Of a DNA stretch of 32,000 bases, positions 68 through 15,294 are shown piece after piece. The stretch's first letter is position 1; every line of letters begins with the position of its first letter. The translations under genes and the position numbers were made by a program. The DNA is from Pirellula staleyi DSM 6068. GTDB taxonomy: Bacteria; Planctomycetota; Planctomycetia; Pirellulales; Pirellulaceae. The notes below the pieces were generated by a model. The model did not search any database and was not told where the DNA came from. It saw only the letters and a list, made by a program, of their open reading frames with translations. The stretch covers positions 1,410,001 through 1,442,000 of the forward strand of contig CP001848.1 in assembly GCA_000025185.1 (NCBI GenBank), given 5' to 3'.

Positions 68-1780
68 ATGTCCCAGCCAGCTTCGCCGGCGACTGAAATT
101 CCGGTGGAGCTGTTTCGCCAGATTCTGATTTGGCCGTTGCTGATTCATGCCCCTCATGGCGAATCAGCAATGGAATTAATGGATCTTGTAACGGACGAGC
201 TAGAGCGTCACTCGTGGCATTGGAATGATCGATCCGCAGGCCAAAGTGCTTCGCCGCTGAAGGGGCTTCCTTGGTATCAGGACGATCATGACTATTCGGA
301 GATCGTTTACTTCCACTCCTACGTGCGCGACTTTCTCTATGGAGGCGATGGAACACCGGCTAGCGAGCGACCACTTCGCGTCCTTCGTCGTACCGACATT
401 GCTTCACTCCTGTTAAAGGTTGATGAAGGTCGCGAATATCGGCTGAAGGTCGAACGTGTCGAAGCCTATCTGTTCGATTCAGGCATTCTGCAAGTCGTGG
501 TAGAAGTTGCCGCCCCGCAATTGGTATCCAAGTCGCCGACCGATAGTGAGCAGTTGCGGCCATTCATGCTCAGCGATGCACTCGATCTACAGAATGTGCT
601 GCGCATGGCTTTTCCGCGCCGCTGGAAGCCGAAAACTGGCATACCTTCGGAAACTCCACACCGAGCTTGTTGGCTCAACTCCGAGGGAAGTGAAATCGCC
701 GGGAGTGTTCAGGACTTTCTTAACCAGGAAGACTTTACTCGGATCGTGCGCGAGCAGGCCGAACTGCCGGCCGCCAAACACTGGCAGTATCTCGTCCAAC
801 CCCTGCCACTCTTTGAGCGACGGGTTTGCACTGGATTGTCGGTCAAGCAAATTGAAGACCAGCGTTTACCTTCGATGTCGTACATCGCTGTCCCTGATCC
901 GCGTTTGATTTCCGACGGCGACTTTGAGCGAATCGCCTTCTTCGACAGCGCCGGTCAGTCTTCGGTAGGTTCCTATTCCGATGAATTTCTAGTCGGTTGG
1001 GAAAAGGATCATGCTTACGACCGCTTTTGGCAACGACTCCCCAGCGAAGGCGGTCCTGAAGTTGCCCTGCATAACCAAATGATGCGAACTCGTTGGCTCT
1101 GCAGCGGCTATGGTTTTGCGGTGGTGGGTGCCAGCGGCGACAAGTTCTTCACTACTCAGATTGCAGCCAACTTTCGCCATCACTATTTTCGCATGGGGCT
1201 GATCGCCCATTTTCATCGTGCCAAGCTAATCTCACTTCGTGACCAACTTGCTGAAGCGACAAAACAGGTAGGTGAGAACTTCCGCAATCGCGTGATGGAG
1301 ATCCAGCGAAGCGCTACCATCTTTCGCGCCCGATTCTGGTTTCATGAGGTATCCACACAGCTTCAAGGTCGTGAGATTTTCACGTGGTGGTCCAATCGAC
1401 TCGGCAATCCATCGCTATTTGAGCATGTGATTTCCGACATCGAAGCTGCTGAGTCGCAAGTTCGAACCGAATTTGAAGCAGAAGAATCTCAAGACATTAA
1501 CCTCATCACACGCGTGGGTGGTGCGATTGGTATTCTGAGTATTGTACTCTCAATTGTAGCGCTAATCATTTCGCTGCTTGCACTGGAAGCCATTTCGCCA
1601 CTTAAGCAGTTTGCGATCATGCCAGCCAATCCATGGGACTGGACAGTTGCCAACCTCTGGCTTGGCCGTATCGCCTCGATCGCGTGCCCCCTATCAATTG
1701 TGAGCCTTTGGATTCTATTGGTCGTCTATGGTGGGCTTCGATATTACAAGAGCCATCGTCGTACTCGACGCTTGAGGTAG
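68..1780 (+). CDS. Membrane protein with CorA-like topology (large soluble N-terminal region, two C-terminal TM helices); candidate effector of the adjacent Cas10-like/RAMP module
   Basis: 570-aa ORF from ATG 68. It lies on the same strand as the next gene with a 29-nt gap. C-terminal hydrophobic helices GGAIGILSIVLSIVALIISLLAL and IASIACPLSIVSLWILLVVYGGL are followed by the basic tail KSHRRTRRLR. No GMN motif was seen. The functional label is inferred from topology and gene context only. Confidence 0.7.
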   Translation: MSQPASPATEIPVELFRQILIWPLLIHAPHGESAMELMDLVTDELERHSWHWNDRSAGQSASPLKGLPWYQDDHDYSEIVYFHSYVRDFLYGGDGTPASERPLRVLRRTDIASLLLKVDEGREYRLKVERVEAYLFDSGILQVVVEVAAPQLVSKSPTDSEQLRPFMLSDALDLQNVLRMAFPRRWKPKTGIPSETPHRACWLNSEGSEIAGSVQDFLNQEDFTRIVREQAELPAAKHWQYLVQPLPLFERRVCTGLSVKQIEDQRLPSMSYIAVPDPRLISDGDFERIAFFDSAGQSSVGSYSDEFLVGWEKDHAYDRFWQRLPSEGGPEVALHNQMMRTRWLCSGYGFAVVGASGDKFFTTQIAANFRHHYFRMGLIAHFHRAKLISLRDQLAEATKQVGENFRNRVMEIQRSATIFRARFWFHEVSTQLQGREIFTWWSNRLGNPSLFEHVISDIEAAESQVRTEFEAEESQDINLITRVGGAIGILSIVLSIVALIISLLALEAISPLKQFAIMPANPWDWTVANLWLGRIASIACPLSIVSLWILLVVYGGLRYYKSHRRTRRLR

Positions 1781-1809: not shown

Positions 1810-3309
1810 ATGACGGTGTTTGTGATGCCAAGCTTTCTGCTAAGACTAGAAGCCGTCAACTTCAGCGAGTCCTGCTACGACACTTGCGACATTAGCACAA
1901 TTCGCGGCGGCTCGATGATGTTGTCGAATGCTCATGAGCTAGCTCGCGTCGTTCTGCCGCAGGAAATCCAGCACGAGCCGACAAGTTTCGGGGCTTCTCA
2001 TGCGATTTGGCAGTTCGAAGCTGCTGATGCAAATGCTGCAGAGAAAGTGCGCAACGATACTCTCCACGCACTAGCAAAACACAAACAGCTCCGACATGCG
2101 ACATTTGTTTGTGCGGTTGTCGCTAACGACGATGGTAGTGCCGATGCTTTACATCGATTGCGCATGCACAACCATTGGCGTCAGTATCAAGAGCCAACCG
2201 TTGTCCCTCCCGATCTACCCGATGCAAAAAGGCAAGGCAAGCGAATTTGCGAACTTGACCATGTACGTCCCGCCACGATGGAGATTCGAAAGGGAAACGA
2301 TAGCTATTGGGTCAGTACTAGCACGTACGATCGGCGTGTTTATGGCCGGAAGCAAAAGCGGATGTTCTACAAAGAACTCTGTGGGAGCGATCTCGCGGTT
2401 GTCCACGATTTGAGCGACCTCACGTCGCATCTTGAGTCGTCGCAGCATCGCCTCCATGGCAAGATGGCATTGATCTATATCGACGGGAATCAGCAGAGTG
2501 AGATGGCTGCTGATCTCAGCCTTGACCGGTTAAGCAAGTTTCGCCAATACGTTCGTGAGCAACATCGCCGGTTTCTTACTACCTTGCTTGAAGAGATTGT
2601 GCAGTTGATGCCCGCTCAGGGAAGCTCAAATGAATGGTTTCACTGGGACTCTGAGCAAAATGAACTTCAGGTTCGATTGGAAACGCTCCTTTGGGGCGGC
2701 GATGATATCGTCTTGGTAGTTCCCGCTTGGAAGGGATGGTATGTCGCGAGGAAATTCTACGAAGCAGCGCAAGGTTGGGAGTTTGGCGGCCAGAAGTTCA
2801 CTCATGCAACGGGATTAATCTACTGCAGCCACAAAGCACCCATCCAAGATATGCGGCGATATGCAGAAGACCTTGTTGTGCAGTGCAAGAAGACCAAGAA
2901 CAGCGAAGGCAACTATCAAGACTTAATGGGTTATGAGGTGCTGGAATCCATCGACGTAATTTCCAGTGACCTCGACCGTTGGCGGTCGGCCAGACTGGGA
3001 GAGTCAGAGAAGTCCGGGGCCGAAGCAATCGCCAGTGCATTGTTATTGAGCCCCGCTCAGATGGACGGCATAGAATCGATGATCCGGTCGATTCGAGTTG
3101 GCGTTGACGATCCTGACTCAATTCTGTCGCGTCGGCAAATCGAGAGGCGGGCGAGGAGAATGCAACACTCCATGATTGGCGATGAGCAATTTGATAGTGA
3201 CGTTACCAACTATTTTGCCGGTTCAGAGTTTGAGAAGATTGGTTTAGGCCCGCATTCACTGCGTGCCAAACTGTTCCACCTCACCGCAATGTGGGACTAC
3301 CTTACATGA
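1810..3309 (+). CDS. Minimal Cas10-like palm-domain nucleotide cyclase/polymerase (mCpol-like), GGDD intact, no HD domain
   Basis: 499-aa ORF. Motifs appear in Cas10 order. ISTIRGGSMMLSNA resembles the LRGRSxxL / LWAGSYLLS motif. KMALIYIDGNQQSEM is a candidate first metal-binding Asp strand. LLWGGDDIVLVVPAWKG carries GGDD at nt 2695-2706. THATGLIYCSHKAPIQDMRRYAEDLVVQCK resembles the Cas10 SaGi..h.k.P.......A...l..aK segment. The stop overlaps the next gene's start (ATGA at 3306-3309). Confidence 0.75.
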   Translation: MTVFVMPSFLLRLEAVNFSESCYDTCDISTIRGGSMMLSNAHELARVVLPQEIQHEPTSFGASHAIWQFEAADANAAEKVRNDTLHALAKHKQLRHATFVCAVVANDDGSADALHRLRMHNHWRQYQEPTVVPPDLPDAKRQGKRICELDHVRPATMEIRKGNDSYWVSTSTYDRRVYGRKQKRMFYKELCGSDLAVVHDLSDLTSHLESSQHRLHGKMALIYIDGNQQSEMAADLSLDRLSKFRQYVREQHRRFLTTLLEEIVQLMPAQGSSNEWFHWDSEQNELQVRLETLLWGGDDIVLVVPAWKGWYVARKFYEAAQGWEFGGQKFTHATGLIYCSHKAPIQDMRRYAEDLVVQCKKTKNSEGNYQDLMGYEVLESIDVISSDLDRWRSARLGESEKSGAEAIASALLLSPAQMDGIESMIRSIRVGVDDPDSILSRRQIERRARRMQHSMIGDEQFDSDVTNYFAGSEFEKIGLGPHSLRAKLFHLTAMWDYLT

Positions 3310-5291
3310 TTCATGTCGAATTGGAGATCAAGCTCACCCTGGTTGGCCCAGTGTTGACACAGGCAACCTCGGCAGGTCGACTTGGCCTCGATGCTGTGAT
3401 GGCACGCACTTCAGCAGGACATCCGTTCTTGCCCTACTCCCTAGTTCGTGGAAAGTTGCGTCAAGCTCTCGAAGAGGTTTCAAGCCCTCTTCAGAGCGAA
3501 GACCAAAGGAACGTTGAGCAGCTGTTGCCGATCTGGTTTGGTCCGAGATCTTCCTCAAAAGAAGCGGAGCAGGAGAGAGGTGCCTTATGCTTCTCTGATT
3601 TTATCTGCCCTGAGCCCAAAGATGATCTCGCTACACAGACGCGAATTCGTATCGATCGCGATACAGGTGCAGCAGAAGACAAGATGATGATGGTGTTCGA
3701 CTCACCATTTAAAGTTGGCGAAGAGGCTCCGTTTATAGGGAGAATTTGGTGCATTTGCGGGTCAGTGGGGCAGGCAGAATCCACGATCAAGTATGTGCTA
3801 GCTGGTCTCCGCTGGGTTCGTCAATTCGGAGCTGAAAAGACCATTGGTTTTGGATGCGTTTCGAATGTAGATCTACTTAAGGCAACCGTTACGGACCTTG
3901 CTCCACACTCGCAAGCAACCAGAAACACCATCACCCAAAAACTAAGCAACTTGCTAGCTAAGACGGGTTCGAAAGTAATCCACAGAAGCCGCAAACCGAA
4001 CGCTCCAGAAGATGGAGGTCACGGGACTCGCTTTCTGCTTCGAATTCAGCCGCAAGGCCCCATTTGTATTGGAGGACGACGTCGCAACGCCAATGTGTTT
4101 GAGTCAGAGGAGGTGATTCCAGGAGGTGTTCTGGTAGGAACGCTCGCCACGATGTGGCGGCAGGCAAACAACAAGCCTCCATCAGATTTTGTTGTCCAGC
4201 CTAGCGGTGGAAAATGGGATACTCTTGCAGAGCACTTTGAGAGGCTGGTGTTTTCTCATGCATTTCCGAGCAAGAGAGGATCGGGAATCAGGCCCTGTGC
4301 AATTCCTATGTCGCTAGTGTCAGCTGAACCACGCCATGGTGACATACCAGATTCACTTTTCGACGTTGCGCTCTGTAGTCGCCCGCGTCTGATTCCTGCT
4401 ATCGGCAGCAACCTGTTACGCCCACCCGTCTTTCAGTCCGATTGGAAGTCGCATGTTGTTGGTTCGAAAGCGAAAGCGATCTTTGGCTGGTCAAGTGTGC
4501 CAAGAGAGCTTCGTGTCAGAACGGCAATCGATATCGAAACTTTGCGTGCTTCCGATGAACAGCTTTTCGCCTATGAGATGGTGGTGCCTGACCAACATGA
4601 ATGGCTGGGCTATTTAGATCTGGAAAATGTCCCGCCTCAGGACCGAGCTATGTTGCTTGAGGAACTTGAATCGTTATTATCGGCCGGTCTTTGCCCAATT
4701 GGCAAGACAAAGATCGATGCCAGCATAAGCATCGAGCCCTATACTGCCGCCACGCCGATGTTGCCGTCGAGTTCCACACCGCTTCCCGGGAATGTTTGGG
4801 TGATTACGCTCCAGACACCAGCAATTCTGTGTGCGTCGACGGATTTAGAAGATCCGACAGGCGAGCAGTTGTTCGATGGCTACAGGAAAGCTTGGAAGAC
4901 ACTTTCGGATGAAAGTCTCGAACTTCAACGATTCTTTGCACGCCAATCTCTATCAGCACCTAGATTCGCCGGTCGATTGCCAACAAATTCCAGCGGACAG
5001 TTCTATCCCTTCGTCGTTACCGATGCTGGAAGCACCTTTGTATTGCGTGCAACAGGCGACGTTAGAGATGCACAACTCAAAGTCAAAGAATGGCTTAATC
5101 TGGGGATGCCTCTTTGCGACTATCTGTTGGGTGGCAGCCAAGCTGACAAAGCTGACAGAGATTGGCAGCGATCCCCCTATCTAAATCGCCATGGATATGG
5201 CGAAGTTGCCGTTAATCAACCCTGGTTGTTAGGTCACGATTCCAGCGTGGTGATGCCACAGCGTCTAGACGATGAGGAAGGTACGATATGA
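3306..5291 (+). CDS. RAMP-superfamily fusion protein (N-terminal Cas7-like unit plus a second RAMP unit, possibly Cas5/Csm4-Cmr3-like)
   Basis: The ORF track gives 3291-5291 with a GTG start. ATG 3306 forms an ATGA overlap with the upstream stop, so it is preferred. Unit 1 motifs are PFLPYSLVRGKLRQALEE, LPIWFGP, RIRIDRDTGAAEDKMM and the glycine loop FGAEKTIGFGCV. Unit 2 motifs are FLLRIQPQGPICIGG, VIPGGVLVGTLATMW and GLCPIGKTKIDA. The stop overlaps the next start (ATGA at 5288-5291). Confidence 0.7.
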   Translation: MIHVELEIKLTLVGPVLTQATSAGRLGLDAVMARTSAGHPFLPYSLVRGKLRQALEEVSSPLQSEDQRNVEQLLPIWFGPRSSSKEAEQERGALCFSDFICPEPKDDLATQTRIRIDRDTGAAEDKMMMVFDSPFKVGEEAPFIGRIWCICGSVGQAESTIKYVLAGLRWVRQFGAEKTIGFGCVSNVDLLKATVTDLAPHSQATRNTITQKLSNLLAKTGSKVIHRSRKPNAPEDGGHGTRFLLRIQPQGPICIGGRRRNANVFESEEVIPGGVLVGTLATMWRQANNKPPSDFVVQPSGGKWDTLAEHFERLVFSHAFPSKRGSGIRPCAIPMSLVSAEPRHGDIPDSLFDVALCSRPRLIPAIGSNLLRPPVFQSDWKSHVVGSKAKAIFGWSSVPRELRVRTAIDIETLRASDEQLFAYEMVVPDQHEWLGYLDLENVPPQDRAMLLEELESLLSAGLCPIGKTKIDASISIEPYTAATPMLPSSSTPLPGNVWVITLQTPAILCASTDLEDPTGEQLFDGYRKAWKTLSDESLELQRFFARQSLSAPRFAGRLPTNSSGQFYPFVVTDAGSTFVLRATGDVRDAQLKVKEWLNLGMPLCDYLLGGSQADKADRDWQRSPYLNRHGYGEVAVNQPWLLGHDSSVVMPQRLDDEEGTI

Positions 5292-8200
5292 CCACTCAAA
5301 TAGCGACTCGGTATCAGCTGAAGTCACGCTGGAAGATCACCGGAACCCTAACCACAACTAGTCCGATGCATATCGGGAGTGGTGATTCGACCACCCATCC
5401 GCAGCTTGTAAACGAAGCTTCTGAAACCGATAGCACTATCGCCCACAAATCAATAGAAGTGGCTGCAATTGTTCGTGACTTCCAAGGTAAGCCCATCATT
5501 CCGGGCTCAGCGCTAAAAGGTGTGCTTCGGAGTTGGGCTGAGAAACGGTACACCAACTATCGTCCCCAGATCAGCAAGATCTTTGGAGACCTTGACTGCA
5601 GTACTCCCCAAGCTCGCTCGGGTCGTGCGGTATTCAGAAATGCGATACTGATCCCACCTAAGGACGACTTAATAACTAGATACAAAAACTTTGTCCCCTA
5701 TTGGCGAACTGATAAGTTAGCTGGAATACTCAGTCATGTTTGCATTGATCGCCACAACGGTACTGCGTCCGCCAATAAACTATTCTTCGAGGAGTTCTTG
5801 CCCGAGGGGATTTCCTTTAAGGTTGAGATTTTTGCCGAGCAGCTTGATGAATCGGACGTTCAATTATTGCTAAGCGTTCTAGTTCATGGCGTTTCCGATG
5901 ACAGTGAACCAATACAATTTGGTTCGAACACGGCCAATGGCTGGGGGCAAGTATCGTGGAGCGATGTGTTCGTATCTCGCAATATCGATAACTCACATGT
6001 TGAATTGGATCTAAACACGCTTTCATTTAGACAGCGGTGTAACAATCTAACAATCGATGCGTTGCCGGCGCCACCTCCACCCGATCACATTAAGACTATT
6101 CCACTCTTGTTTCAGTGCCGGGGCCCTTTTCTGGTCAACGACGGGTCGCGAGTGAAGAGGAAGGAAATGAGTGAGGCCGAGAAAGAGCGGCACCGGAACT
6201 TTACCCCTCTGAGACGCGCCGACGGCAGCGTATGGTTGCCAGCGTCGTCGTTTCGAGGAGTTCTGCGTAGCCGAGCAGAATTCATTCTTCGCTCGCTCGA
6301 TCCTAGCGCAACAGGCGATCCCAACAAGCCACTCAGCAAAGACAACCCCATTGAAAAGATCTTCGGCATGACCGGCCACGCCAGCCGTCTGCAAATCGAC
6401 GAGTTTAGTAGTTCAACCACTGACCCTAAGCTGCGGCATCAAGACTTTGTTGCGATTGACCGATTCACCGGAGGTGCTGCAGACACCGCAAAGTTCGACG
6501 CCGAGTATGCTGACCACCCCACCTTTTCGAGCCGACTCCGCCTCAACACCCATGGGCTTTCCGAATCAGATATTGCGATTCTTGCTGCTACGTTGCGGGA
6601 CTTGACGAGAGGAGACCTGCAGTTTGGCTTTGGAGTCGCGAAGGGTTATGGCGAATTAGTGGGCAATTGGACAACTGACGCAGAGGCCTGGGCACGAAAA
6701 CAACTGCAGCATCTTCCAGTCGCAAAACGCTCGGAGATTCCAAATAGCTCAGGCCCTAGCCCCTCGCCTACTAAGGCAAATGTCATCGAGGGCAAACTTA
6801 TATTTCAAAAGATCAGGGGTGAGGACAAGCCCGTACGTCGCCTAGTGTATCGAAACAAAAAAAACGAATGGACAACCCAGGCTCCCACACCGATCGTGTT
6901 CGCCTCACTGCCGCAGTCACTGCAAACCAACACGAGTCCAGAAATAGAAGTCGATTTCGAATGGGCGAGTCCAAACAAGCCCACAAGAGTTCGAGAGCGC
7001 GGCACGCACCTACGAATCGCGGCAAGGCATAATTTTGCTGCAAACCAAGCAAATGACTATTTTGCTCACGCTTACTACTTCCTGCGACACGAAGAAAGAA
7101 GAAACCTAGGTGGGAATGGCAAGCCATCGGCCTGGCCAAATGATTTGGCAGACCGAAATCCCTATGGACATGAGCGTTATCAAGAGGGGTGTTATTCAGG
7201 AACAATAAGTGTTCGATTGACGACGAAGACGCCTCTCCTACTGTGCGACGATCTCACTCGCCGTGAAACGCAACCTGGGCACTATGAGTACGATATGAGG
7301 GGCGATGATGAAGGGAACCCGATTCTTCACTCATCGTCAGTTCGAGGAATGCTACGCAGTGCCTATGAGGCAATCACGAACTCCCGAATGGGGGTGTTTA
7401 CAGGACACGATGACCGACTTGGGTTGCGAATGCAGACCCAAGAGGGGCTCGCACTAGTACCCTGTCGGATCGAGAGCGGAAAAGTTGTCCTCCTTCCAGG
7501 TACGTCCCAGATTACTGTTTCTAGGCCGAGTGGTCCAATGTATGCCGCGTGGCTACCGGCATATCCTGAAACGGGAGCATTAAGGCTCAGCAATACAGGG
7601 AATCTACCCCAACACCGTCAACACGTGAGCTGTTGGATTGAGCTTTGGGAGCGAACTCCATGGGTGGAAGTTCGCAACGATATAAACCATGGTCGGTTTG
7701 CTGAAGATAAAAAGTTTAGCTATTGGAAGGTTGTGGCGATCGCACCGCACGGACAACATCTCAGCAAACCCTCTAGCTCAAGCGAATGCCCTCGAATTGA
7801 TGGCACAAATCATCACACTCCTAAAGGCGAACCGATTCGTTTTATTGAGAATGGCTATGTCTGCTCTACCAACTACAACTTTGATAAGAAACATGACGAA
7901 AGAGTCTTCTTTGTTGACAATAGTAGTGAGTTAACACCGATTCCCCTATCAGAATCGCTTGTTCAGCAGTGGGGGAACCTAATTCGTAATTATCGACTGA
8001 ACGAAGATCTAGCTAAGGATAAAAAACGGCCTGGGGCCCTCACGAAGGCTGGTTGGTCTCGGCATATGAAAGATGATCGAGAGCTTACCTTAGCCGATGG
8101 CAGCTTGGCCTACGCGCGACTCGATGCGAAAGGTAGTGTCATCGAGCTCTTCCCGGTGATGATTGCGCGAAAACTGTATCCACGCAGCCCTTGGTGTTCG

Positions 8201-9106
8201 ACTCCGCGTTCACTTCTGCCGGCTACGAGTCGTTCTATGCTTTCGCCTGCAGATCGGCTGTTTGGTTGGGTCAATCAGGAATGCGTGGATAAAGACAGCC
8301 CTGCTTACCGTTCGCAATTGAGAGTGGGAGTTGTTGAATGCAAAACAAATGAGGCAATTAGATCATTCAATGTGCCGATGGTGGTTCCAATACTATCTCA
8401 ACCCAAACCTTCCCAGGGAAGGTTCTACCTAGGCGACAAGACAGGGCGCACACAGCCCCCCGGAGGATCGAAAGAAGATCGTGGATATTCAGGGACCAAT
8501 CGAATTCGTGGTCCTAAGGTTTACCCTCACCATGCGGCGTTTTCGCTAGATAGAGTTGGAAAGTCAGCTGGGCAAGCTGGAAATCAGAATCGTTCCATTA
8601 CTGGCTGTGTTAGAGAGGGTGTCGAGTTCAAATTTAATCTACATGTTCTTAATCTGTCTCGACTGGAAGTCTCTGCCCTTTTTTGGTTGCTAACCTTGCC
8701 GCCGAGTCACTATCTGCGACTCGGCCTGGGAAAGCCGCTTGGCTTCGGAAGTGTGAGCTGTGAGATCGTTAACACTGAAACTCGCATCTCCGATGGAAGC
8801 GACTGGATTGCTTCGCTTAAGGAGTGGGATGCATTACCGCCTGGAATTGATGCTACCGCAATTCAGTCGATGGCTGCAGAGTATGAATCCCAGATTGGAG
8901 AAGTCAATCCCACTCTCATGCAATCGTTTTTGCAAATAGCAAAAGGTTTTGGATGTGTTGAAACTGGATATCCACCAAGTCCCGACTCAAGAACGCTAGG
9001 TGGCGAGCATTTTAAGTGGTTTGCAGCGAATGAACGCAATAGAGCCGGAGCGAGGTCACTTCCTGACCCATCGGATAATGATCCGTTATTGCCAAAGATG
9101 CTATAG
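5288..9106 (+). CDS. Giant RAMP fusion with three Cas7 (Csm3/Cmr4)-like domains, the third carrying large insertions
   Basis: 1272-aa ORF. Unit 1: SPMHIGSGD, IPGSALKGVLRSWAEK (nt 5498-5533), ISKIFGD, ICIDRHNGTASANKLF, FGSNTANGWGQV. Unit 2: LPASSFRGVLRSRAEF (nt 6236-6274), IEKIFGMTG, AIDRFTGGAADTAKF, LQFGFGVAKGYGEL. Unit 3: YFAHAYYFLRHE (resembles the PYNFVPL-type start of type III-D RAMPs), YSGTISVRLTTKTPLLL, ILHSSSVRGMLRSAYEAI (nt 7322-7363), ADRLFGWVNQ, LRLGLGKPLGFGSV. Confidence 0.85.
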   Translation: MTTQIATRYQLKSRWKITGTLTTTSPMHIGSGDSTTHPQLVNEASETDSTIAHKSIEVAAIVRDFQGKPIIPGSALKGVLRSWAEKRYTNYRPQISKIFGDLDCSTPQARSGRAVFRNAILIPPKDDLITRYKNFVPYWRTDKLAGILSHVCIDRHNGTASANKLFFEEFLPEGISFKVEIFAEQLDESDVQLLLSVLVHGVSDDSEPIQFGSNTANGWGQVSWSDVFVSRNIDNSHVELDLNTLSFRQRCNNLTIDALPAPPPPDHIKTIPLLFQCRGPFLVNDGSRVKRKEMSEAEKERHRNFTPLRRADGSVWLPASSFRGVLRSRAEFILRSLDPSATGDPNKPLSKDNPIEKIFGMTGHASRLQIDEFSSSTTDPKLRHQDFVAIDRFTGGAADTAKFDAEYADHPTFSSRLRLNTHGLSESDIAILAATLRDLTRGDLQFGFGVAKGYGELVGNWTTDAEAWARKQLQHLPVAKRSEIPNSSGPSPSPTKANVIEGKLIFQKIRGEDKPVRRLVYRNKKNEWTTQAPTPIVFASLPQSLQTNTSPEIEVDFEWASPNKPTRVRERGTHLRIAARHNFAANQANDYFAHAYYFLRHEERRNLGGNGKPSAWPNDLADRNPYGHERYQEGCYSGTISVRLTTKTPLLLCDDLTRRETQPGHYEYDMRGDDEGNPILHSSSVRGMLRSAYEAITNSRMGVFTGHDDRLGLRMQTQEGLALVPCRIESGKVVLLPGTSQITVSRPSGPMYAAWLPAYPETGALRLSNTGNLPQHRQHVSCWIELWERTPWVEVRNDINHGRFAEDKKFSYWKVVAIAPHGQHLSKPSSSSECPRIDGTNHHTPKGEPIRFIENGYVCSTNYNFDKKHDERVFFVDNSSELTPIPLSESLVQQWGNLIRNYRLNEDLAKDKKRPGALTKAGWSRHMKDDRELTLADGSLAYARLDAKGSVIELFPVMIARKLYPRSPWCSTPRSLLPATSRSMLSPADRLFGWVNQECVDKDSPAYRSQLRVGVVECKTNEAIRSFNVPMVVPILSQPKPSQGRFYLGDKTGRTQPPGGSKEDRGYSGTNRIRGPKVYPHHAAFSLDRVGKSAGQAGNQNRSITGCVREGVEFKFNLHVLNLSRLEVSALFWLLTLPPSHYLRLGLGKPLGFGSVSCEIVNTETRISDGSDWIASLKEWDALPPGIDATAIQSMAAEYESQIGEVNPTLMQSFLQIAKGFGCVETGYPPSPDSRTLGGEHFKWFAANERNRAGARSLPDPSDNDPLLPKML

Positions 9107-9210
9107 CGTACCGCTATTTGGATATTAGCGATCGAATAGGCCACTATAGTCCCGGTAATGATGTTTTGCTATTGAAGCTGTCTCGATGACTTGTTTCCGT
9201 CGTTATGTCA

Positions 9211-9238
9211 TGAATGAATGAATGAATGAATGAATGAA
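9211..9238. repeat. Tetranucleotide microsatellite (TGAA)x7
   Basis: Direct reading: tgaatgaatgaatgaatgaatgaatgaa, about 100 nt after the RAMP operon stop. It places TGA stops in all three + frames. Confidence 0.95.
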
Positions 9239-10036
9239 AAGGTCAAACTGAACTCACTGACTGGCAGATGAGAGTGTCAGGCACTACGTATCTAATTGAT
9301 TCAACTTTGCTCTGGATCTCGAGCATAGTCTTGAGTATCTCGCCAGTTCATGCTGGTTCTCCCTGAATAGGGTGTCACGTACCATTACGTAACGGAAGTG
9401 TTACGAAGGTATCTTCAGTCCTACAATCGTGCTTTACTGGTAGCAAGTTCCAGATTCGCAGCAGAATTAGATAGTAACTCCCACATTCCGAAGGTGTATC
9501 GATGTCAAAGGCGCTTCACCTGTACCAAAAGGAGTGAGAGCCAATATCCGGTAGTGTAGGCCATCGGTTAGTTACAGTTACGGTGTTTTGGTTGCGGCAA
9601 ACCGTACAGTGTAATTTCTGCTCGGGACTTATCACCAGAGTACCGCTCGAAAAATGGGGTGGGGGGATGGTTCAATCCTGGAAGGCTTGGGTCCCTCGGG
9701 TCCTTTGTGCATTCAAAATTGAGAGTACAAGTGCCATATCGGACGGTGTTTGCTATCGCTCAATCCACATCACTGCATCGCTGATGCCCTCGACGTGCAG
9801 TGAATCGCTACTCGGTTGGCACAAAATGAGTAGAGTTTCGGGCCAACTACCGCCAAAATCTTGCGTCGCAATGCTTGGGCTGGTCACTTCCCATTGATTT
9901 GGAGCGTCGTCCTGCACAACCGTTCGGCAATTGCATCGGACTCTTGTCTTGTCGTCGCAAAATCAAGCCATTGCCCTTTGGGATGGCGAGTTGTTGTTCT
10001 GCTTTGAAGGGAGCGCATTCGACTTTCTGCCTGCTC

Positions 10037-10116
10037 GCGACCAACGAGTTGTTGACTTTTCTAGATTTTTCGTGAAACCCGTAGATGGTGGAAGTAAGAG
10101 CGGTTTGGGATAATGT
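10037..10116 (+). repeat. Diverged direct repeat, copy 1 (core GAAACCCGTAGATG at 10074-10087)
   Basis: GCGACCAAC...TTCTAGATTTTTCGTGAAACCCGTAGATGGTGGA...GCGGTTTGGG aligns with copy 2 over about 80-95 nt with indels. The two copies share an exact 14-mer. Confidence 0.6.
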
Positions 10117-10396
10117 GCCCCCAACCAACTCCAGCAATCTGCAGACGCAGGGCAGGTTCGACGACTGTTCAACTTGGCTTGAGGGGCTCTTTCAGTACAG
10201 TTGCCGTAAGTTATGACCTACATGTGACCGAGGTTGCGGCGATTCAACGGGCGAGTTCCCTTTGCGTAGAGTGCTGCTCACTCGAATTTTCGTGCTCTTG
10301 GACTGATCACTAGTAGTTATCTCTGCGCATGACGAGACTTACCTGCGGGTCGTTAGGTGAAGTGAATGCCGAAACCGATGTCGCTCGAAGTCCATA

Positions 10397-10490
10397 GCGC
10401 CAACAATCTACGACTAAGCAGGGTTTCTCGAAGATTTTGGAAACCCGTAGATGATGAGTATTCGGTGTGGTGTAGCCGATTTGGTTGTCA
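10397..10490 (+). repeat. Diverged direct repeat, copy 2 (core GAAACCCGTAGATG at 10440-10453; local stem GGGTTTC 10421-10427 / GAAACCC 10440-10446)
   Basis: GCGCCAAC...GGGTTTCTCGAAGATTTTGGAAACCCGTAGATGATGAG...GCCGATTTGG lies 366 nt downstream of copy 1. Weaker partial matches to the TCGAA(G)ATTTT(C)G part occur near 10281-10296 and 10681-10698. Confidence 0.6.
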
Positions 10491-10517
10491 CCGTGATCAG
10501 CTGTCACCTGGAAATCT

Positions 10518-10937
10518 CTATCGGCCCAAGCGAGAAGCTAGGACCAGTGCCAGGACAGCATTTCGGCAGTCTTCGGAGAGCTTGTCCCAGGATTCAATGA
10601 TCTGGAGGAGTCTCGGCTCGAAGGAAGGTACGTCGACCCTTGGGGAGGGGAGTGAAATTGTTGGTTGAAGGAGGCGACTATCTTTTGAAGATTTACTGTT
10701 ACTGTCTAATAACGGATTACTTTCGGTTCCAATTCCCTTGTTTTGATGATTTCTAGTGCGCGCGTCGGATTCTGCGTCGGTTGATTCGCAAAATGCCTTA
10801 GTTCCCTTGGAATATGGAGGGTGTTTGTCTCCTACCGGGGGAGCTCCTGTTTTTTCAAGAAAGTGCCGCGTTTCGCGGCATTTTTTGCGCGCCGACCGAA
10901 TTCTCCTCACGGTCCGGCAATGCTCATTCGCGCTCAA
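10518..10937 (-). CDS. Hypothetical protein (weak call)
   Basis: 139-aa ORF. Only the C-terminal part looks protein-like (PRLLQIIESWDKLSEDCRNAVLALVLA). The terminator-like hairpin at 10864-10886 lies inside the ORF, which argues against the full length. Confidence 0.25.
   Translation of the reverse strand: MSANEHCRTVRRIRSARKKCRETRHFLEKTGAPPVGDKHPPYSKGTKAFCESTDAESDARTRNHQNKGIGTESNPLLDSNSKSSKDSRLLQPTISLPSPRVDVPSFEPRLLQIIESWDKLSEDCRNAVLALVLASRLGR
10864..10886 (+). terminator. Intrinsic (rho-independent) terminator, possibly bidirectional
   Basis: TGCCGCG (10864-10870), TTT loop, CGCGGCA (10874-10880), then TTTTTT (10881-10886). An A-rich run (aagaaag) precedes the stem, so the minus strand also sees a weaker T-tract. 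Confidence 0.55.
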
Positions 10938-11398
10938 AAATGCTCAGTTGCGCTCGGTTAGAGCGCACAGAAACGCGCACAGCCTTTTTCCCCCTCTTTC
11001 GGCCCCCTTCCGGATTTCTTCGAGCGGGGACTCACCAATTCGCGGGCCGCCTCGGTCCAAGCCTCTCTGCTTCTCGCTTCTGGTCGACGGTGGGGCCTTC
11101 GAAGCCCTCTGCAGCATTTCGTGACGACAGTTTGCCTCGTTAGAGCTGAAAACTGGTCCATCGCGGTCCAGGACACACAACTCCAGTCGATCCCAGAACG
11201 ACTTGGCGATTCTTTGTCGGAAGTCGTTTGTGTGACCACTTCTACTGCAATTCGGGGGGCGATGAGCATTTATTTTTGAACGGCATTTGACATATTGAGA
11301 TTCATCGCTCTTATAAGTGTTATGTTGTTCATGTGAGAGATCATCTGATTGAAAAAAATTGTTAGTAACCCAGTTGAGTATCAATAGGAGAATAAAAG

Positions 11399-11629
11399 AT
11401 GACTAATAGCTATCAAAATGATGTCAAAAACGAAAGACGCTATGTCACTCTTAGAGAAGCATCGGAGCTGTATCCACTGTCTGAGATGACATTTCGCCGC
11501 TTAGCTTCGGCTGGGAAAATTACGCTGTACCGGCCGACTCCGGGCAAATTGTTCCTGAGTGTCGACGAGATCGAGTCGCACTTTCGCACTTCTGCAGGAG
11601 CGCGAGGGAAAAAATGCCCCGCCAGTTAA
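11399..11629 (+). CDS. Excisionase/AlpA-like helix-turn-helix DNA-binding protein (MerR-type HTH_17-like)
   Basis: 76-aa ORF. RYVTLREASELYPLSEMTFRRLASAGKITLYRPTPGKLFLSVDEIESHF matches the short excisionase-family HTH pattern. AGGAG lies 9 nt upstream of the ATG, in an AT-rich upstream region (TTGACA at 11287, TATAAG at 11312). Confidence 0.7.
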   Translation: MTNSYQNDVKNERRYVTLREASELYPLSEMTFRRLASAGKITLYRPTPGKLFLSVDEIESHFRTSAGARGKKCPAS

Positions 11630-11850
11630 TGCTACTGACTGCGAGGGACCTCAACTCGCACTCTTGGCACGAGCCTAGAAACGGATTTTGCAATGAATGC
11701 GCACGAAAAAAGCCGCCCGAGACTCACAATCTCGAACGGCCAGCAGATGAAGCGCGAAGTTGAGAATGACAAAATCGCTTCAGTCTGTCAACTGTTTCGC
11801 AGCGATAATCTGGCAGTGTTCCATCCCTTCGATCTGCGGAGGGCCTTCTA

Positions 11851-12843
11851 ATGGAATACCCACGACGTCTATCGTTTTTCTCCAATCGATTTGCGGACGT
11901 TTTTCATAGCTCGGGGGCAATCGACGAGCTTGGAAGCACGGCAGCGCTGCTGCTCTGGGTTGTATCCAGTGCCGAGGACAAGACTAGGTATCACGGACCA
12001 GTCAAGTTCTGGGACAGCGACCTTAAACAGAAGGTAGGGTTGTCGAGCCAGCGCCGGTTCGCGGCTGTCCGAAAGCTGTTGGTTGATGCGGGGTGGTTGG
12101 TTTACTACCGATCCACACAACGAGCGATCGGCTCGTATTGGGTGGTGATACCCCAACGCTTCCAAGAGCCGATCGATTTTGAACCCACAGCAGAAACTAT
12201 CGAAGCGAATGGCGCGGAAAACTGCGCCAATGAATTCGAGAATGGCGCACAAAAACGCGCCAATGGTGCGAATGGCGCACTGAATGGCGCACTGAATGGC
12301 GCAGAAAAGTGCGCCCCTTCTATTCCTACTCCTACTCCTAATACCTCTCTCTCTAAAAAAGAGAGTGAGAGAGAGAGGGAAGCGCAACCATCTAAAGCGC
12401 ATCCCCCAGCAGAGGCGATCGACTTAGAGCTTGCCCAGCAATTCTTCAGCGACCTCCGGAAGCTCGATGAGCATCGAGCAGAGCCTGACTTCGAGACTTG
12501 GGCTCATGAGTTTGAGCAACTACGCAAGGCCGGTAAGCCGATCGCGCAGATCCGCGAAGTGATGGACTTCGTTGCAGGCCATGTGAAGCACTGGCGAACT
12601 CGAATCGAGAGCCCGCAATCACTTCGAGAAAACTGGGACAAGCTTGCCCTCGAGTGCGGAGCAGCCAAGAAGGCAAGGGCGGCAACCTGCTCTGAGATTC
12701 CCGATCTCACCGACGACGACGTAATCAAACCACCGCAACATCGCGGCCGCCGACTCTACGGCAATCGCCAGTTGCCCAGCATGGCCGGTGCTAATTACGA
12801 CCCCGACGCACACCTGAAGGATCCCGATCATGGCACCTTCTAG
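11851..12843 (+). CDS. Hypothetical mobile-element protein with internal NGA-type tandem repeat; function unknown (replication/DNA-binding role is speculation)
   Basis: 330-aa ORF with ordinary composition. The central tract ANGAENCANEFENGAQKRANGANGALNGALNGAEKCA is encoded by repeated AATGGCGCA units. The stop TAG (12841-12843) coincides with the IS target site. Confidence 0.65.
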   Translation: MEYPRRLSFFSNRFADVFHSSGAIDELGSTAALLLWVVSSAEDKTRYHGPVKFWDSDLKQKVGLSSQRRFAAVRKLLVDAGWLVYYRSTQRAIGSYWVVIPQRFQEPIDFEPTAETIEANGAENCANEFENGAQKRANGANGALNGALNGAEKCAPSIPTPTPNTSLSKKESEREREAQPSKAHPPAEAIDLELAQQFFSDLRKLDEHRAEPDFETWAHEFEQLRKAGKPIAQIREVMDFVAGHVKHWRTRIESPQSLRENWDKLALECGAAKKARAATCSEIPDLTDDDVIKPPQHRGRRLYGNRQLPSMAGANYDPDAHLKDPDHGTF

Positions 12844-13704
12844 AGCCTGTTATTGACTTATCTGCTTGCAATTGCTGTAGTTAGGGGATGAAACACACGA
12901 CAGGGAAGTCGTATCCCAGCGACGTAACGGATGCGGAGTGGGAATTCCTGCTCCCCTACTTAAGCCTCATGCGCGAGGATGTGTCGCAGCGTGCCTATTC
13001 ACTGCGCGACCAGTTTAACGCCATGCGCTACGTGGTGAAAACAGGAATCCAGTGGGACTTCCTGCCGCATGAAATGCCTCCGTGGCGGGCCGTCTATCAA
13101 CAAATGCGACGCTGGTTCGAAGCGGGAGTCTTTGAGGAAATTGCGCAAGACCTCAGGCTGATGGTGCGTCTTTTGGAAGGACGTGACGAACAGCCAACCG
13201 CTGTGATCATGGATGCTCGAACGCTGCAATCGACTCCTGAAAGTGGAGGCCGCGCGGGATACGACGGCGCGAAGAAAAAGAAGGGTTCGAAGGCCAATAT
13301 TGCCGTCGATACACTGGGAAATCTGCTGGCGGTTTACATCACTGCAGCCAATGAGCAAGACCGCGACCAAGTCGCCATCCTCTCGCAGAGAGTGCAAGAG
13401 GTGACGGGCAGCAACGTGGAGATAGCGTACGTCGATCAAGGCTATACGGGCGCCGCAGCAGCCGAGCAGGCTGAAGCATCCTCGATAAGATTACAAGTTA
13501 TAAAACATACCGAGACCAAGCGAGGCTTTGTCCTATTGCCACGCCGCTGGGTTGTTGAGCGCACCTTTGGTTGGCTGAGTCGCTTCCGCCGTCTCGCGCG
13601 TGATTATGAGAGACTCACCGTCACGCTCACCAACTTCCACTGGCTCGCCTTCCTCACCATACTCCTCGCAAAAATCTACAGACAAAGTCAATAACTGGCT
13701 CTAG
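12841..13704 (+). mobile_element. IS5-family insertion sequence (single-ORF DDE transposase) with terminal inverted repeats at a CTAG target
   Basis: The left end TAGAGCCTGTTATTGACTT (12841-12859) matches the reverse complement of the right end AAGTCAATAACTGGCTCTA (13685-13703) at 18 of 19 positions. The flanks read ..cttCTAG[..]CTAGcga, consistent with either a TA or a CTAG target duplication. The exact IS ends are therefore ambiguous by 2 nt. Confidence 0.85.
12888..13694 (+). CDS. IS5-family DDE transposase
   Basis: 268-aa ORF. The N-terminal region YPSDVTDAEWEFLLPYL...GIQWDFLPHEMPPWRAVYQQMRRWFEAGVFEEI is typical of IS4/IS5 transposase N-domains. DDE-region motifs are AVIMDARTLQS, ANIAVDTLGNLL, AYVDQGYTG and VVERTFGWLSRFRRLARDYERL. 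Confidence 0.9.
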   Translation: MKHTTGKSYPSDVTDAEWEFLLPYLSLMREDVSQRAYSLRDQFNAMRYVVKTGIQWDFLPHEMPPWRAVYQQMRRWFEAGVFEEIAQDLRLMVRLLEGRDEQPTAVIMDARTLQSTPESGGRAGYDGAKKKKGSKANIAVDTLGNLLAVYITAANEQDRDQVAILSQRVQEVTGSNVEIAYVDQGYTGAAAAEQAEASSIRLQVIKHTETKRGFVLLPRRWVVERTFGWLSRFRRLARDYERLTVTLTNFHWLAFLTILLAKIYRQSQ

Positions 13705-14170
13705 CGAGCACAGGACCAGCACCGGACCAGGTGCGGACCAGTCCGGTCCGATAGTCCGGTGGCCCAGGCCAAACCAACCGCCCGAGAAGCACCGGCTCGA
13801 GTTCGTCGCAGTCTTCTCCACCGAGGGTGCAGGCGACCGTGAGATGGCGATGATGCAACTAAAGCGATTCCTAAAGGCCGCACTTCGCCAGTATCGCTTC
13901 CGATGTGTCTCCGTTGAGGAATGGTGACGTCCAGGCCACTACAACGCGTCCTGGCGCAAATAAAGCGATTCTAGAGGCATCTCCCACGCACGGAAGTGAG
14001 CACGAGACATGACCTCCACCCATCGCCAGCCAAGCCGTCGCACAAGCTGGAACGAATCACCAAGCACGCCCATCGCTGAAACGATGCGACGGGTGTGCGT
14101 CCCCTTAAGCTCCCCCGCACTGAGTTGGCTTTGCCAATGAGGTGCTGGGGGGCCGGGGGGCAGGTTGCGC

Positions 14171-14314
14171 ATGCATCGCTGTCGTCCCGGTGATCGCGTC
14201 GTGGTGAGCAAGGTCAAGGTTCGCCCCCTCGTCCGAATCGGAAGCGACAAGCTGTACTACGTGGTGCTGACGGCGGGACGAAGAACGTCCATCAAGACCC
14301 GCGAGACGAACTAG
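14171..14314 (+). CDS. Small hypothetical protein (47 aa), below the ORF-track length cutoff
   Basis: Translated manually as MHRCRPGDRVVVSKVKVRPLVRIGSDKLYYVVLTAGRRTSIKTRETN. The composition is protein-like, with no other support. Confidence 0.3.
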   Translation: MHRCRPGDRVVVSKVKVRPLVRIGSDKLYYVVLTAGRRTSIKTRETN

Positions 14315-14604
14315 TCGGCGGAACAATGTTTTTCTCTTCTCTCCGCAGCGGGGCTCAGCGTTCGAGTGCCTTCCCTAAACAGCCATGAGAAGGCTTGCAA
14401 ATAACCGTCGTTCGATGACCTGGAGTAAGGAAGAATAGGGCCGATTCTGCATATTCCGAATTATGCAGAACTCTAGATAGTCCAGCCCAGTTTGCATCTT
14501 TCTCGTCTTTTGTTGACACCCCCTCCCGAAATAGGCAGAATGCAACCCGAAAGAAATATGCAGACTTCCGTATAGTAACTGTTCGCTGCTGTAAGAGGCA
14601 CTCG

Positions 14605-15294
14605 ATGGGCTACCTCGTCACGGCTCACGTCCTTCGCGAAAAGCCGGACCTCTCGCGGCTCGGCGAATTGCCGAAATCTGTGGGCTTTCGGGTCTACTTG
14701 CACCGCGCCGCGAACCTTTACCTGTTGGACACTTTTCGTCCCGCAAAGGTGCCGCAGTATCCATTTCAGACGTTGCTGCCAGCTGCCGATATTCCGCTGA
14801 AATTGCCTCCTGGCTTGGAAAGTCTCGAACGGATTTACTCGCGGTTCGGCCCGCTGAATCTCGCGAATGGCTTTAAGAAATCGTACATCAACGCGGCTCT
14901 GCTGCTCAATCGGCTCCTTCAATCGCCCGTTTTCTCGTTCGTGTCGAACGACGACGATCTCGATTTCACGTGTTCCGCGGTCGGCGGATCTCTCAACCGA
15001 CTGAAATGTCGGTGCGGCGACCTCGTGATCTCCTTCGACGGAAAAAGAGCCCAAATTGCGCCGCTCGTGCCAGACGAAGAAGACGAGGACCTTCTCACTG
15101 ATACCGCTGCTTTGAAATCCGCGATGCCCGAAGTGGAAGTTCTTGAGCGTCAGACTCCGTGGGACACGCAATTGCATTGCATCGCCATGGAAGAGCTGCA
15201 AGCGTTTGCTGGAATCAAAGAAATGATCTTGGGGTTGGGGAGCTTTGATCCGCCCGAAGACGAGTCCGAGTGGAGACTCGTCGCCTCGCGGTGA
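14605..15294 (+). CDS. Cassette ORF, hypothetical protein
   Basis: 229-aa ORF with ordinary composition. The longer antisense ORF (14473-15357) is R/E-rich shadow. The stop TGA at 15292-15294 lies 5 nt before attC1. Confidence 0.65.
   Translation: MGYLVTAHVLREKPDLSRLGELPKSVGFRVYLHRAANLYLLDTFRPAKVPQYPFQTLLPAADIPLKLPPGLESLERIYSRFGPLNLANGFKKSYINAALLLNRLLQSPVFSFVSNDDDLDFTCSAVGGSLNRLKCRCGDLVISFDGKRAQIAPLVPDEEDEDLLTDTAALKSAMPEVEVLERQTPWDTQLHCIAMEELQAFAGIKEMILGLGSFDPPEDESEWRLVASR

Follow-up and report, generated by a model that had tools for sequence, protein, structure and literature searches.

What kind of effector is built when three Cas7 units share one chain and a Cas10 is encoded beside them? 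The question is raised by a 32,000-nt stretch of Pirellula staleyi DSM 6068 (assembly GCA_000025185.1, contig CP001848.1, positions 1,410,001 to 1,442,000 of the forward strand), hereafter the window, in whose listing of open reading frames (ORFs) a single ATG-initiated frame on the plus strand, 5288..9106, encodes 1272 amino acids (aa). A sequence-only reading had seen in it the single-protein backbone logic of the type III-E effectors (gRAMP/Cas7-11), but paired with a Cas10-like gene, which III-E lacks. We are highly confident that the product of this ORF is Cas7x3 and that it serves as the large CRISPR RNA (crRNA)-backbone subunit in a type III-D2 CRISPR-Cas effector of P. staleyi associated with CorA. 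This architecture has already been described and structurally solved, making the protein an ordinary addition to a known kind rather than a new logic. What is new here is modest: a route to the fusion through loss of csx19, the identification of the linker with the N-terminal domain (NTD) of Cas7-insertion, and variable catalytic residues.

Three Cas7 units and their operon partners

Cas7x3 is a double-Cas7 protein, Cas7-2x, fused to an insertion-bearing Cas7 of the TIGR03986 family, Cas7-insertion; that is, three Cas7 (RAMP) units in one polypeptide, the third carrying the insertion. The Pfam RAMPs model (PF03787) matches it in three separate stretches (E 7.5e-52), the NCBIfam model TIGR03986 matches aa 621-1163 with 302.2 bits, above its curated cut-off of 161.35 bits, and the N-terminal units are matched by the Csx7, Cmr4 and Csm3 models of NCBIfam. 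Units 1 and 2 align with each other in BLASTP (25% identity, E 6e-07). AlphaFold2 models made with family alignments as input had a mean predicted local distance difference test score (pLDDT) of 86.5 for aa 1-620, and of 85.8 with a predicted template modelling score (pTM) of 0.83 for aa 454-1272, and Foldseek matched both to solved Cas7-2x, Cas7-insertion and Cas7-11 chains (E 1e-24 to 1e-58). The best match of the N-terminal model was the Synechocystis Cas7-2x (8s9t_D, E 3.5e-24, TM 0.63), with many Cas7-11 chains and Csm3 coming next, and that of the C-terminal model was the Synechocystis Cas7-insertion (8s9t_E, E 6e-58, TM 0.77), followed by Cas7-11.

The sequence-only reading had proposed one polypeptide with three Cas7 units and a large insertion in the third, and on this point sequence, profile and predicted-fold evidence agree with it. 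Its motifs are all found in the translation: the Cas7 hallmark at aa 71-82 (IPGSALKGVLRS), aa 317-328 (LPASSFRGVLRS) and aa 681-691 (HSSSVRGMLRS); the xFG motifs KIFGD (aa 97-101), KIFGM (aa 357-361) and RLFGW (aa 990-994); the glycine-rich loops GSNTANGWG (aa 212-220), FGFGVAKGYG (aa 446-455) and LGLGKPLGFG (aa 1145-1154); and, in units 1 and 2, IDRxxGxA as IDRHNGTA (aa 153-160) and IDRFTGGA (aa 390-397). In the Foldseek comparison of the predicted structures, RAMP folds lie at the three motif positions. YFAHAYYF (aa 591-598), which had been likened to the PYNFVP-type start of a RAMP, does correspond to it, aligning with FHNPYNFVPAPPR of the stand-alone homologues. The domains of Cas7x3, with the evidence for each, are as follows.

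5315..5983, plus strand: Cas7.2 domain, aa 10-232 (aligns with residues 16 to about 230 of 9wxh_D and 5-181 of 8s9t_D)
6083..6673, plus strand: Cas7.3 domain, aa 266-462, without a zinc finger (alignments with PDB sequences)
6674..6778, plus strand: Ser/Pro-rich connector, aa 463-497 (AlphaFold2 model, family alignment)
6779..7003, plus strand: small beta-rich domain, the NTD, aa 498-572 (AlphaFold2 model; profile homology to the N-terminus of stand-alone Cas7-insertion)
7004..7147, plus strand: lead-in to Cas7.4, aa 573-620, whose FAHAYYFLR corresponds to FHNPYNFVP (alignment with stand-alone proteins)
7148..7435, plus strand: N-terminal part of Cas7.4, aa 621-716 (alignment with 8s9t_E from residue 131 and with Cas7.4 of Cas7-11)
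7436..8152, plus strand: insertion (INS) domain of about 240 aa, approximately aa 717-955, its boundaries being approximate (alignment with 8s9t_E, secondary structure of the model)
8153..8782, plus strand: C-terminal part of Cas7.4, aa 956-1165 (TIGR03986 and 8s9t_E alignments)
8783..9103, plus strand: helical C-terminal extension, aa 1166-1272 (alignment, model)

The residues that stack on the crRNA at its 3' end in Synechocystis are conserved, F307, whose role in this stacking has been described (PMC11026444), corresponding to F810 in the INS domain and F767 to F1242 in the C-terminal extension. In the latter, W1244 and F1245 are invariant in the family.

The neighbouring genes place the protein. 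corA, cas10, cas7-cas5 and cas7x3 form one tightly, translationally coupled operon, in which cas7x3 is last.

68..1780, plus strand: CRISPR-associated CorA-like membrane effector, 570 aa (PADLOC CorA model PDLC01043, E 8.3e-132, full length)
1810..3309, plus strand: small Cas10, 499 aa, consisting of Palm1, linker, Palm2 and C-terminal domain, with no HD domain (PADLOC Cas10, 1.5e-25; 9wxh_B, 2.4e-41)
2695-2706, plus strand: GGDD motif in Palm2 of Cas10, aa 296-299
3306..5291, plus strand: Cas7-5, a fusion of Cas7.1 and Cas5, 661 aa from the ATG at 3306 (9wxh_C of 635 aa, E 1e-96, over aa 5-638)
5288..9106, plus strand: Cas7x3, 1272 aa (ORF, profiles, matches to PDB sequences)

The ATG of cas7-5 overlaps the stop codon of cas10 as ATGA, and so does the ATG of cas7x3 with the stop codon of cas7-5, there with GAGGAAGG upstream. 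Cas7-5 aligns end to end with 9wxh_C and has no Cas11 domain. The CorA-like protein had no match in Pfam or NCBIfam.

Among the features of type III-D2, the following are present: the three-Cas7 polypeptide, an adjacent Cas7-Cas5 without Cas11, a Cas10 with GGDD, CorA and the absence of Csx19. The layout is that of the published type III-D2, of which a homologue has been solved, the HyVt-522 complex (cryo-EM structure 9WXH in 2026, with SAM-AMP signalling to CorA; PMC13294483), and Cas7x3 therefore belongs to a known kind. The claim of a new backbone logic does not hold, since the arrangement had been published as type III-D2 Cas7x3 (PMC8730458; PMC13294483); the name itself dates from 2021, as cited in PMC8730458. 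Of the proposed III-E-like backbone paired with Cas10, the Cas10 gene is indeed nearby, but the backbone is not a single protein, its Cas7.1 and Cas5 being supplied by the Cas7-Cas5 neighbour.

Could Cas7x3 nevertheless act alone, as a gRAMP/Cas7-11-like effector that merely lies beside a Cas10 gene? It has weak, partial matches to the III-E gRAMP model NF041225 and to Cas7-11 chains, and it has an INS-bearing Cas7.4 in common with Cas7-11. However, the gRAMP score of 143.6 bits comes from partial stretches only and is far below the cut-off of 700, which together with the presence of Cas10 and Cas5 argues that Cas7x3 is not a III-E gRAMP. Moreover, the protein has three Cas7 units only, with neither Cas11 nor Cas7.1; Cas7.1 and Cas5 come from the translationally coupled upstream gene; its closest solved relatives are the multi-subunit III-D2 and III-Dv complexes; and no TPR-CHAT gene was found among the window ORFs scanned. 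We consider a solitary III-E-like effector highly improbable. The protein, deposited as 'DUF324 / RAMP' (in the large protein search, a P. staleyi DSM 6068 entry annotated 'DUF324' matched Cas7x3 with 100% identity), can accordingly be named Cas7x3, and the operon a CorA-linked type III-D2 system, probably with SAM-AMP signalling.

The linker and the origin of the fusion

A genome scan yielded 80 loci, none of them from P. staleyi itself, and the three units form one gene in 11 of them; these fused loci have the same small Cas10, Cas7-5 and CorA where the contig allows. In the other 69, cas7-2x and cas7-insertion are separate wherever both are on the contig, and the split loci carry between the two a gene for 190-220 aa that is Csx19 (8s9t_B, E 4e-48). 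Queried by tblastn with six Csx19 proteins, 64 of the 69 loci that lack the fused gene gave a match; the 11 fused loci and the window gave none. The fusion thus coincides with the loss of the intervening csx19, in support of the proposal that type III-E effectors, which are single proteins, derive from multi-subunit type III-D.

The linker of about 140 aa between units 2 and 3, for which a Cas11-like nature had been suggested, is a connector, largely predicted to be disordered, followed by a beta-rich domain inherited from the N-terminus of Cas7-insertion. The connector (aa 463-497) begins with a short predicted helix (aa 463-473), is largely predicted disordered beyond it (aa 482-496 fall under pLDDT 50, and the ten-residue blocks of aa 481-500 have values of 60-65) and is poorly conserved, with indels. 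The NTD (aa 498-572) is predicted at pLDDT 82-94 with strands at 500-507, 516-522, 552-561 and 564-570 and a helix at 543-547; the string beginning KANVIEGKL, quoted in the sequence-only reading, covers aa 496-528. The lead-in that follows (aa 573-620) is confident only when modelled together with Cas7.4. A hidden Markov model (HMM) for which aa 496-576 of fused proteins alone were used finds, in more than 50 split loci, the very N-terminal end of the stand-alone Cas7-insertion ORF, with a best independent E-value of 2.5e-18.

Exhaustive profile searching across 1.84 billion representatives gave 126 proteins, essentially all of the same family, and we therefore regard the NTD as specific to the Cas7x3/Cas7-insertion family. 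It lies at about aa 450-620 in fused proteins and at residues 3-75 in proteins of about 800-950 aa; among the short matches looked at, most are plainly pieces of these proteins that have been cut short, and a few spurious matches fall in repetitive giants. The HMM search did not detect it in HyVt-like Cas7x3. Searched directly up to E 10, the linker matched nothing in NCBIfam or among PDB sequences, 36 NTD sequences run against Pfam returned scattered single-member noise only, and a word-indexed search with the NTD alignment was empty, the domain being too short for the prefilter. The first half of the NTD is basic (mean +3.7) and the second half acidic (mean -1.6), and a role in RNA capture or partner docking would be a guess. 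The nucleic-acid-binding role that the sequence-only reading had also considered for the linker may still apply. In the Synechocystis Cas7-insertion, the N-terminal region consists of 112 residues invisible by cryo-EM (PMC11026444). A domain conserved in more than 100 sequence clusters and confined to this family deserves a functional test.

The other possible identities of the linker, a Cas11-like small-subunit domain or a Csx19 remnant that replaces the missing subunit, had some plausibility, since the III-D2 Cas7-5 lacks Cas11, the locus lacks csx19, and csx19 in split loci sits exactly at the fusion point. The confidently predicted part, however, consists of four beta strands and one short helix and is not a helical bundle, so that it is not Cas11-like; the NTD has its homologue at the N-terminus of Cas7-insertion proteins that stand alone, and these occur alongside Csx19 and Cas11; and it is the C-terminal domain of Cas10 that fills the Cas11-like role in the solved III-D2 complex (PMC13294483). 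The Csx19 remnant was rejected, with a profile-profile probability in hhalign below 1%. Either identity is very improbable, and the linker is best described as a connector plus an inherited NTD.

The two halves of the protein have different closest relatives. In phmmer searches against PDB sequences, aa 13-469 were closest to the HyVt-522 Cas7x3 (9wxh_D, E 5e-47), the match of the N-terminal units to Synechocystis Cas7-2x being far weaker (7.6e-12 with the full-length query, 3e-15 with aa 1-470 only), whereas aa 618-1269 were closest to Synechocystis Cas7-insertion (8s9t_E, E 4e-110), with only a weak match (28.6 bits) between the third unit and that of HyVt-522. The large protein search returned about 58 relatives alignable along the whole of Cas7x3 at 33-55% identity, about 50 of them full length and mostly from Planctomycetota, and a second, HyVt-like group (Methylobacter, Electrothrix and others) matching the N-terminal 35-39% only. 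Corrected distances in the N-terminal half are 1.34 between the planctomycete and HyVt types and about 1.95-2.0 from either to stand-alone Cas7-2x; in the C-terminal half, the planctomycete type is 1.06 from stand-alone Cas7-insertion, and the HyVt type about 2.2 from both. Neighbour-joining trees of both halves are unrooted and contain three groups, so that they carry no sister information and do not decide between a single fusion and independent ones; we report the distances alone. The pattern may stem from a single fusion after which the third unit of the HyVt type diverged fast; separate fusions may also account for it, and so may recombination.

We put forward tentatively, as a scenario that is possible yet doubtful, that the planctomycete-type Cas7x3, with its about 50 full-length relatives, is a distinct III-D2 lineage that arose when csx19 was deleted directly from a III-Dv-like ancestor, in an event possibly separate from the one behind the HyVt-522 lineage; that it kept the flexible NTD as a module inside the chain, with its own function in RNA capture or partner docking; and that it has a second working cleavage site, with Asp or Glu at position 57, by which the target would be cut twice.

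Some of the loci in the scan show other arrangements of the same parts. One contig (JGI metagenome 3300066008, contig Ga0604939_0000843; locus L081:7001-12748, protein P0060) has a 1915-aa ORF that joins Cas7-5 to Cas7x3 and so unites Cas7.1, Cas5, Cas7.2, Cas7.3 and Cas7.4, with Cas10, a DHH hydrolase, Cas6-RT-Cas1 (RT, reverse transcriptase) and Cas2 as separate neighbours; its aa 1-582 are 35% identical to the window Cas7-5 (E 4e-94) and Cas7x3 starts at about aa 630. This fusion occurs on one contig only, and an error of a single base could mimic it, given the usual ATGA overlap of cas7-5 with cas7x3. Long frames without stops that run across cas7-5 and cas7x3 in L009 and L001 were rejected as fusions, being out-of-frame GC-rich artefacts. 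A split, III-Dv-like locus contains tandem Cas7-insertion paralogues (L046:10256-12151 and 12883-14880) with 32% and 37% identity to the third unit of the window protein.

Predicted activity and state of the locus

By homology to 9WXH and 8S9T, Cas7-5 would cap the crRNA at its 5' tag and contribute Cas7.1; homology likewise suggests that Cas7.2 and Cas7.3 of Cas7x3 would continue the filament, with thumbs flipping every sixth base, and that Cas7.4, with its insertion and C-terminal extension, would hold the 3' part of the guide, stacking on it via F810 and F1242. Binding of a complementary transcript would activate Cas10 through its GGDD motif; the product would most probably be SAM-AMP, upon which CorA would open and the infected cell be arrested. 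The target RNA would be cut at Cas7.1 by D29 of Cas7-5.

The residues on which such cutting depends can be followed from unit to unit. D29 of Cas7-5 (nt 3390-3392) aligns with D29 of the solved HyVt-522 Cas7-5. For Cas7x3 the columns were mapped using Synechocystis D33 and HyVt Q52/A299: in unit 1, E57 (nt 5456-5458) immediately precedes strand VAAIV and by sequence register equals Synechocystis D33 (D-LALAV) and HyVt Q52, and its column in 48 relatives has D in 31, E in 14, Q in 1 and a gap in 2; in unit 2, the column of N304 (nt 6197-6199) has N in 33, H in 8, D in 5 and S in 2, and many HyVt-like proteins have Asp. Judged from these residues, the target would certainly be cut at Cas7.1, and a second cut, six nucleotides on at Cas7.2 (E57), would be possible, because Asp or Glu stands at position 57 in 45 of the 48 relatives; Cas7.3 (N304) is probably inactive and Cas7.4 should be. 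HyVt-522 makes a single cut in its target, by the essential D29 of Cas7.1 (PMC13294483). Since Cas7x3 proteins differ in their catalytic residues, some III-D2 complexes may cut more than once, and the single cut of this one characterised complex may not be general.

With respect to the messenger, E14 and N17 of Cas10 align with the SAM-contacting E8 and N11 of the solved enzyme (PMC13294483). Around aa 385-392, Cas7-5 is without the 7-residue insert (YPWPFIR) that in HyVt-522 Cas7-5 carries W351, a residue important for SAM-AMP2 synthesis (PMC13294483), so that the P. staleyi system may make SAM-AMP only.

Several observations weigh against parts of this reading. A further SAM contact of the solved Cas10, Q186, is E128 in the window Cas10, and the messenger could therefore differ. 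phmmer placed D48, not E57, opposite Synechocystis D33; the equivalence of E57 and N304 to catalytic Asp is based on sequence register and family conservation, not on superposition, and a Glu at position 57 may not support catalysis. Finally, no CRISPR array, cas6 or cas1/cas2 was found in the window, where the array search (TRF, a repeat finder, a test of k-mer spacing, and blastn-short using the repeats of related loci) was negative throughout, and the window begins just 67 nt upstream of corA. Given this start, the array, cas6 and adaptation genes may lie just outside the window: in related fused loci, the surroundings of corA and cas10 or the DNA upstream of them carry arrays, Cas6, RT-Cas1, Cas2 and a DHH hydrolase associated with CorA.

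One may ask whether the operon is an orphaned or decaying remnant beside mobile DNA, with genes that look intact in a system that has lost immunity. For this speak the lack of array, cas6 and cas1/2 in the window, an IS5 transposase and a helix-turn-helix (HTH) gene 2-4 kb downstream, and the existence elsewhere of a clearly decayed fused locus (L027). On the other hand, all four operon ORFs are full length and coupled by ATGA, the D29, GGDD, E14, F810 and F1242 motifs are intact, the arrays of relatives are upstream of corA or cas10, on the side that falls outside the window, and P. staleyi is listed among genomes with RT-Cas1 (PMC5513706). We consider such a remnant unlikely.

In the decayed locus (L027:3182-7959), frame shifts interrupt CorA and Cas7x3, part of the interior of Cas7.4 is deleted, Cas7-5 survives as its tail only, and cas10 is missing. 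In the related fused loci L002 and L009, an array with a repeat ending in ...AATGGAGAC lies directly upstream of cas10. The stretches concerned are 2022-2269, 5776-6562 and 14166-14558 in L002 and 1775-2225 in L009. L002 has a second, unrelated array downstream and encodes Cas6, RT-Cas1 and Cas2 between corA and cas10. A 'DHH family hydrolase, CorA associated' (PADLOC 1e-59) lies beside CorA or the effector genes in several related fused loci, at L004:5310-6149(-), L055:11108-11872(-), L027:2426-3166 and L081:12793-13623; it is probably an off-switch that degrades the messenger, and none is encoded in the window. Neither was a VapBC-like toxin-antitoxin module, typical of type III-D2 (PMC13294483), seen among the window ORFs scanned.

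Downstream of cas7x3 follow, in order, a 2.3-kb ORF-poor stretch (9107-11398), the HTH gene, a 330-aa ORF, the IS5 transposase and unrelated genes, a WD40 protein and sulfatases among them.

11399-11629: small HTH_17-like protein
11851-12843: 330-aa ORF with short repeats of the GAATGGCGCNC type at 12207-12319
12888-13694: IS5-family transposase

This mobile-looking DNA of 11399-13694 lies beside the cas operon. The ORF-poor stretch contains a perfect (ATGA)7 microsatellite (9210-9238), about 100 nt past the cas7x3 stop codon, and a 33-nt direct repeat (10058-10090 and 10424-10456), its two copies being 366 nt apart with 76% identity and a third, partial one lying at 10281-10294; the spacing is not CRISPR-like, and Rfam gave no match. 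Rfam and tRNA scans of the whole window were empty.

Comparison with known systems

Among the closest known systems is the HyVt-522 III-D2 complex, in which Cas7-5 and Cas7x3 form a filament on the crRNA (PMC13294483). The two have in common the operon of CorA, a small HD-less Cas10, Cas7-5 and Cas7x3, the domain order Cas7.2, Cas7.3, linker and Cas7.4 with INS and C-terminal extension, and the lack of Csx19. They differ in that Cas7.3 of the window protein lacks the Cys4 zinc finger (the HyVt-like Cys cluster is absent), that Cas7x3 has E57 where HyVt has Q52 and carries the beta-rich NTD, that Cas10 has GGDD rather than GGDE, and that the window showed neither Cas6 nor a toxin-antitoxin module.

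With the III-Dv complex of Synechocystis sp. PCC 6803 (8S9T-8S9X; PMC11026444) there is 35-40% identity over about 650 aa of the third unit, the Cas7-2x fold of the first two units, and the N-terminal domain of the Cas7-insertion type, which corresponds to aa 498-572, as shown against split-locus homologues. There, however, csx19 stands between distinct genes for Cas7-2x and Cas7-insertion, whereas here the two proteins are fused and csx19 is absent. The partner is Cas7-Cas5-Cas11 in Synechocystis, with Csm6 and Csx1 as accessories, and a Cas7-5 without Cas11 here, with CorA as effector. The catalytic Asp residues D26, D33 and D246 of Synechocystis have D29, E57 and N304 as their equivalents in the window.

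Cas7-11/gRAMP of type III-E (7WAH, 7Y9X, 8D8N) also has several Cas7 units in one chain and a Cas7.4 with a large insertion and a C-terminal extension, and the Cas7x3 models match it in Foldseek with E 1e-19 to 1e-25. It differs in having four Cas7 units and Cas11, in processing its own crRNA, and in working without Cas10 and Cas5 and with the protease Csx29 as its partner.

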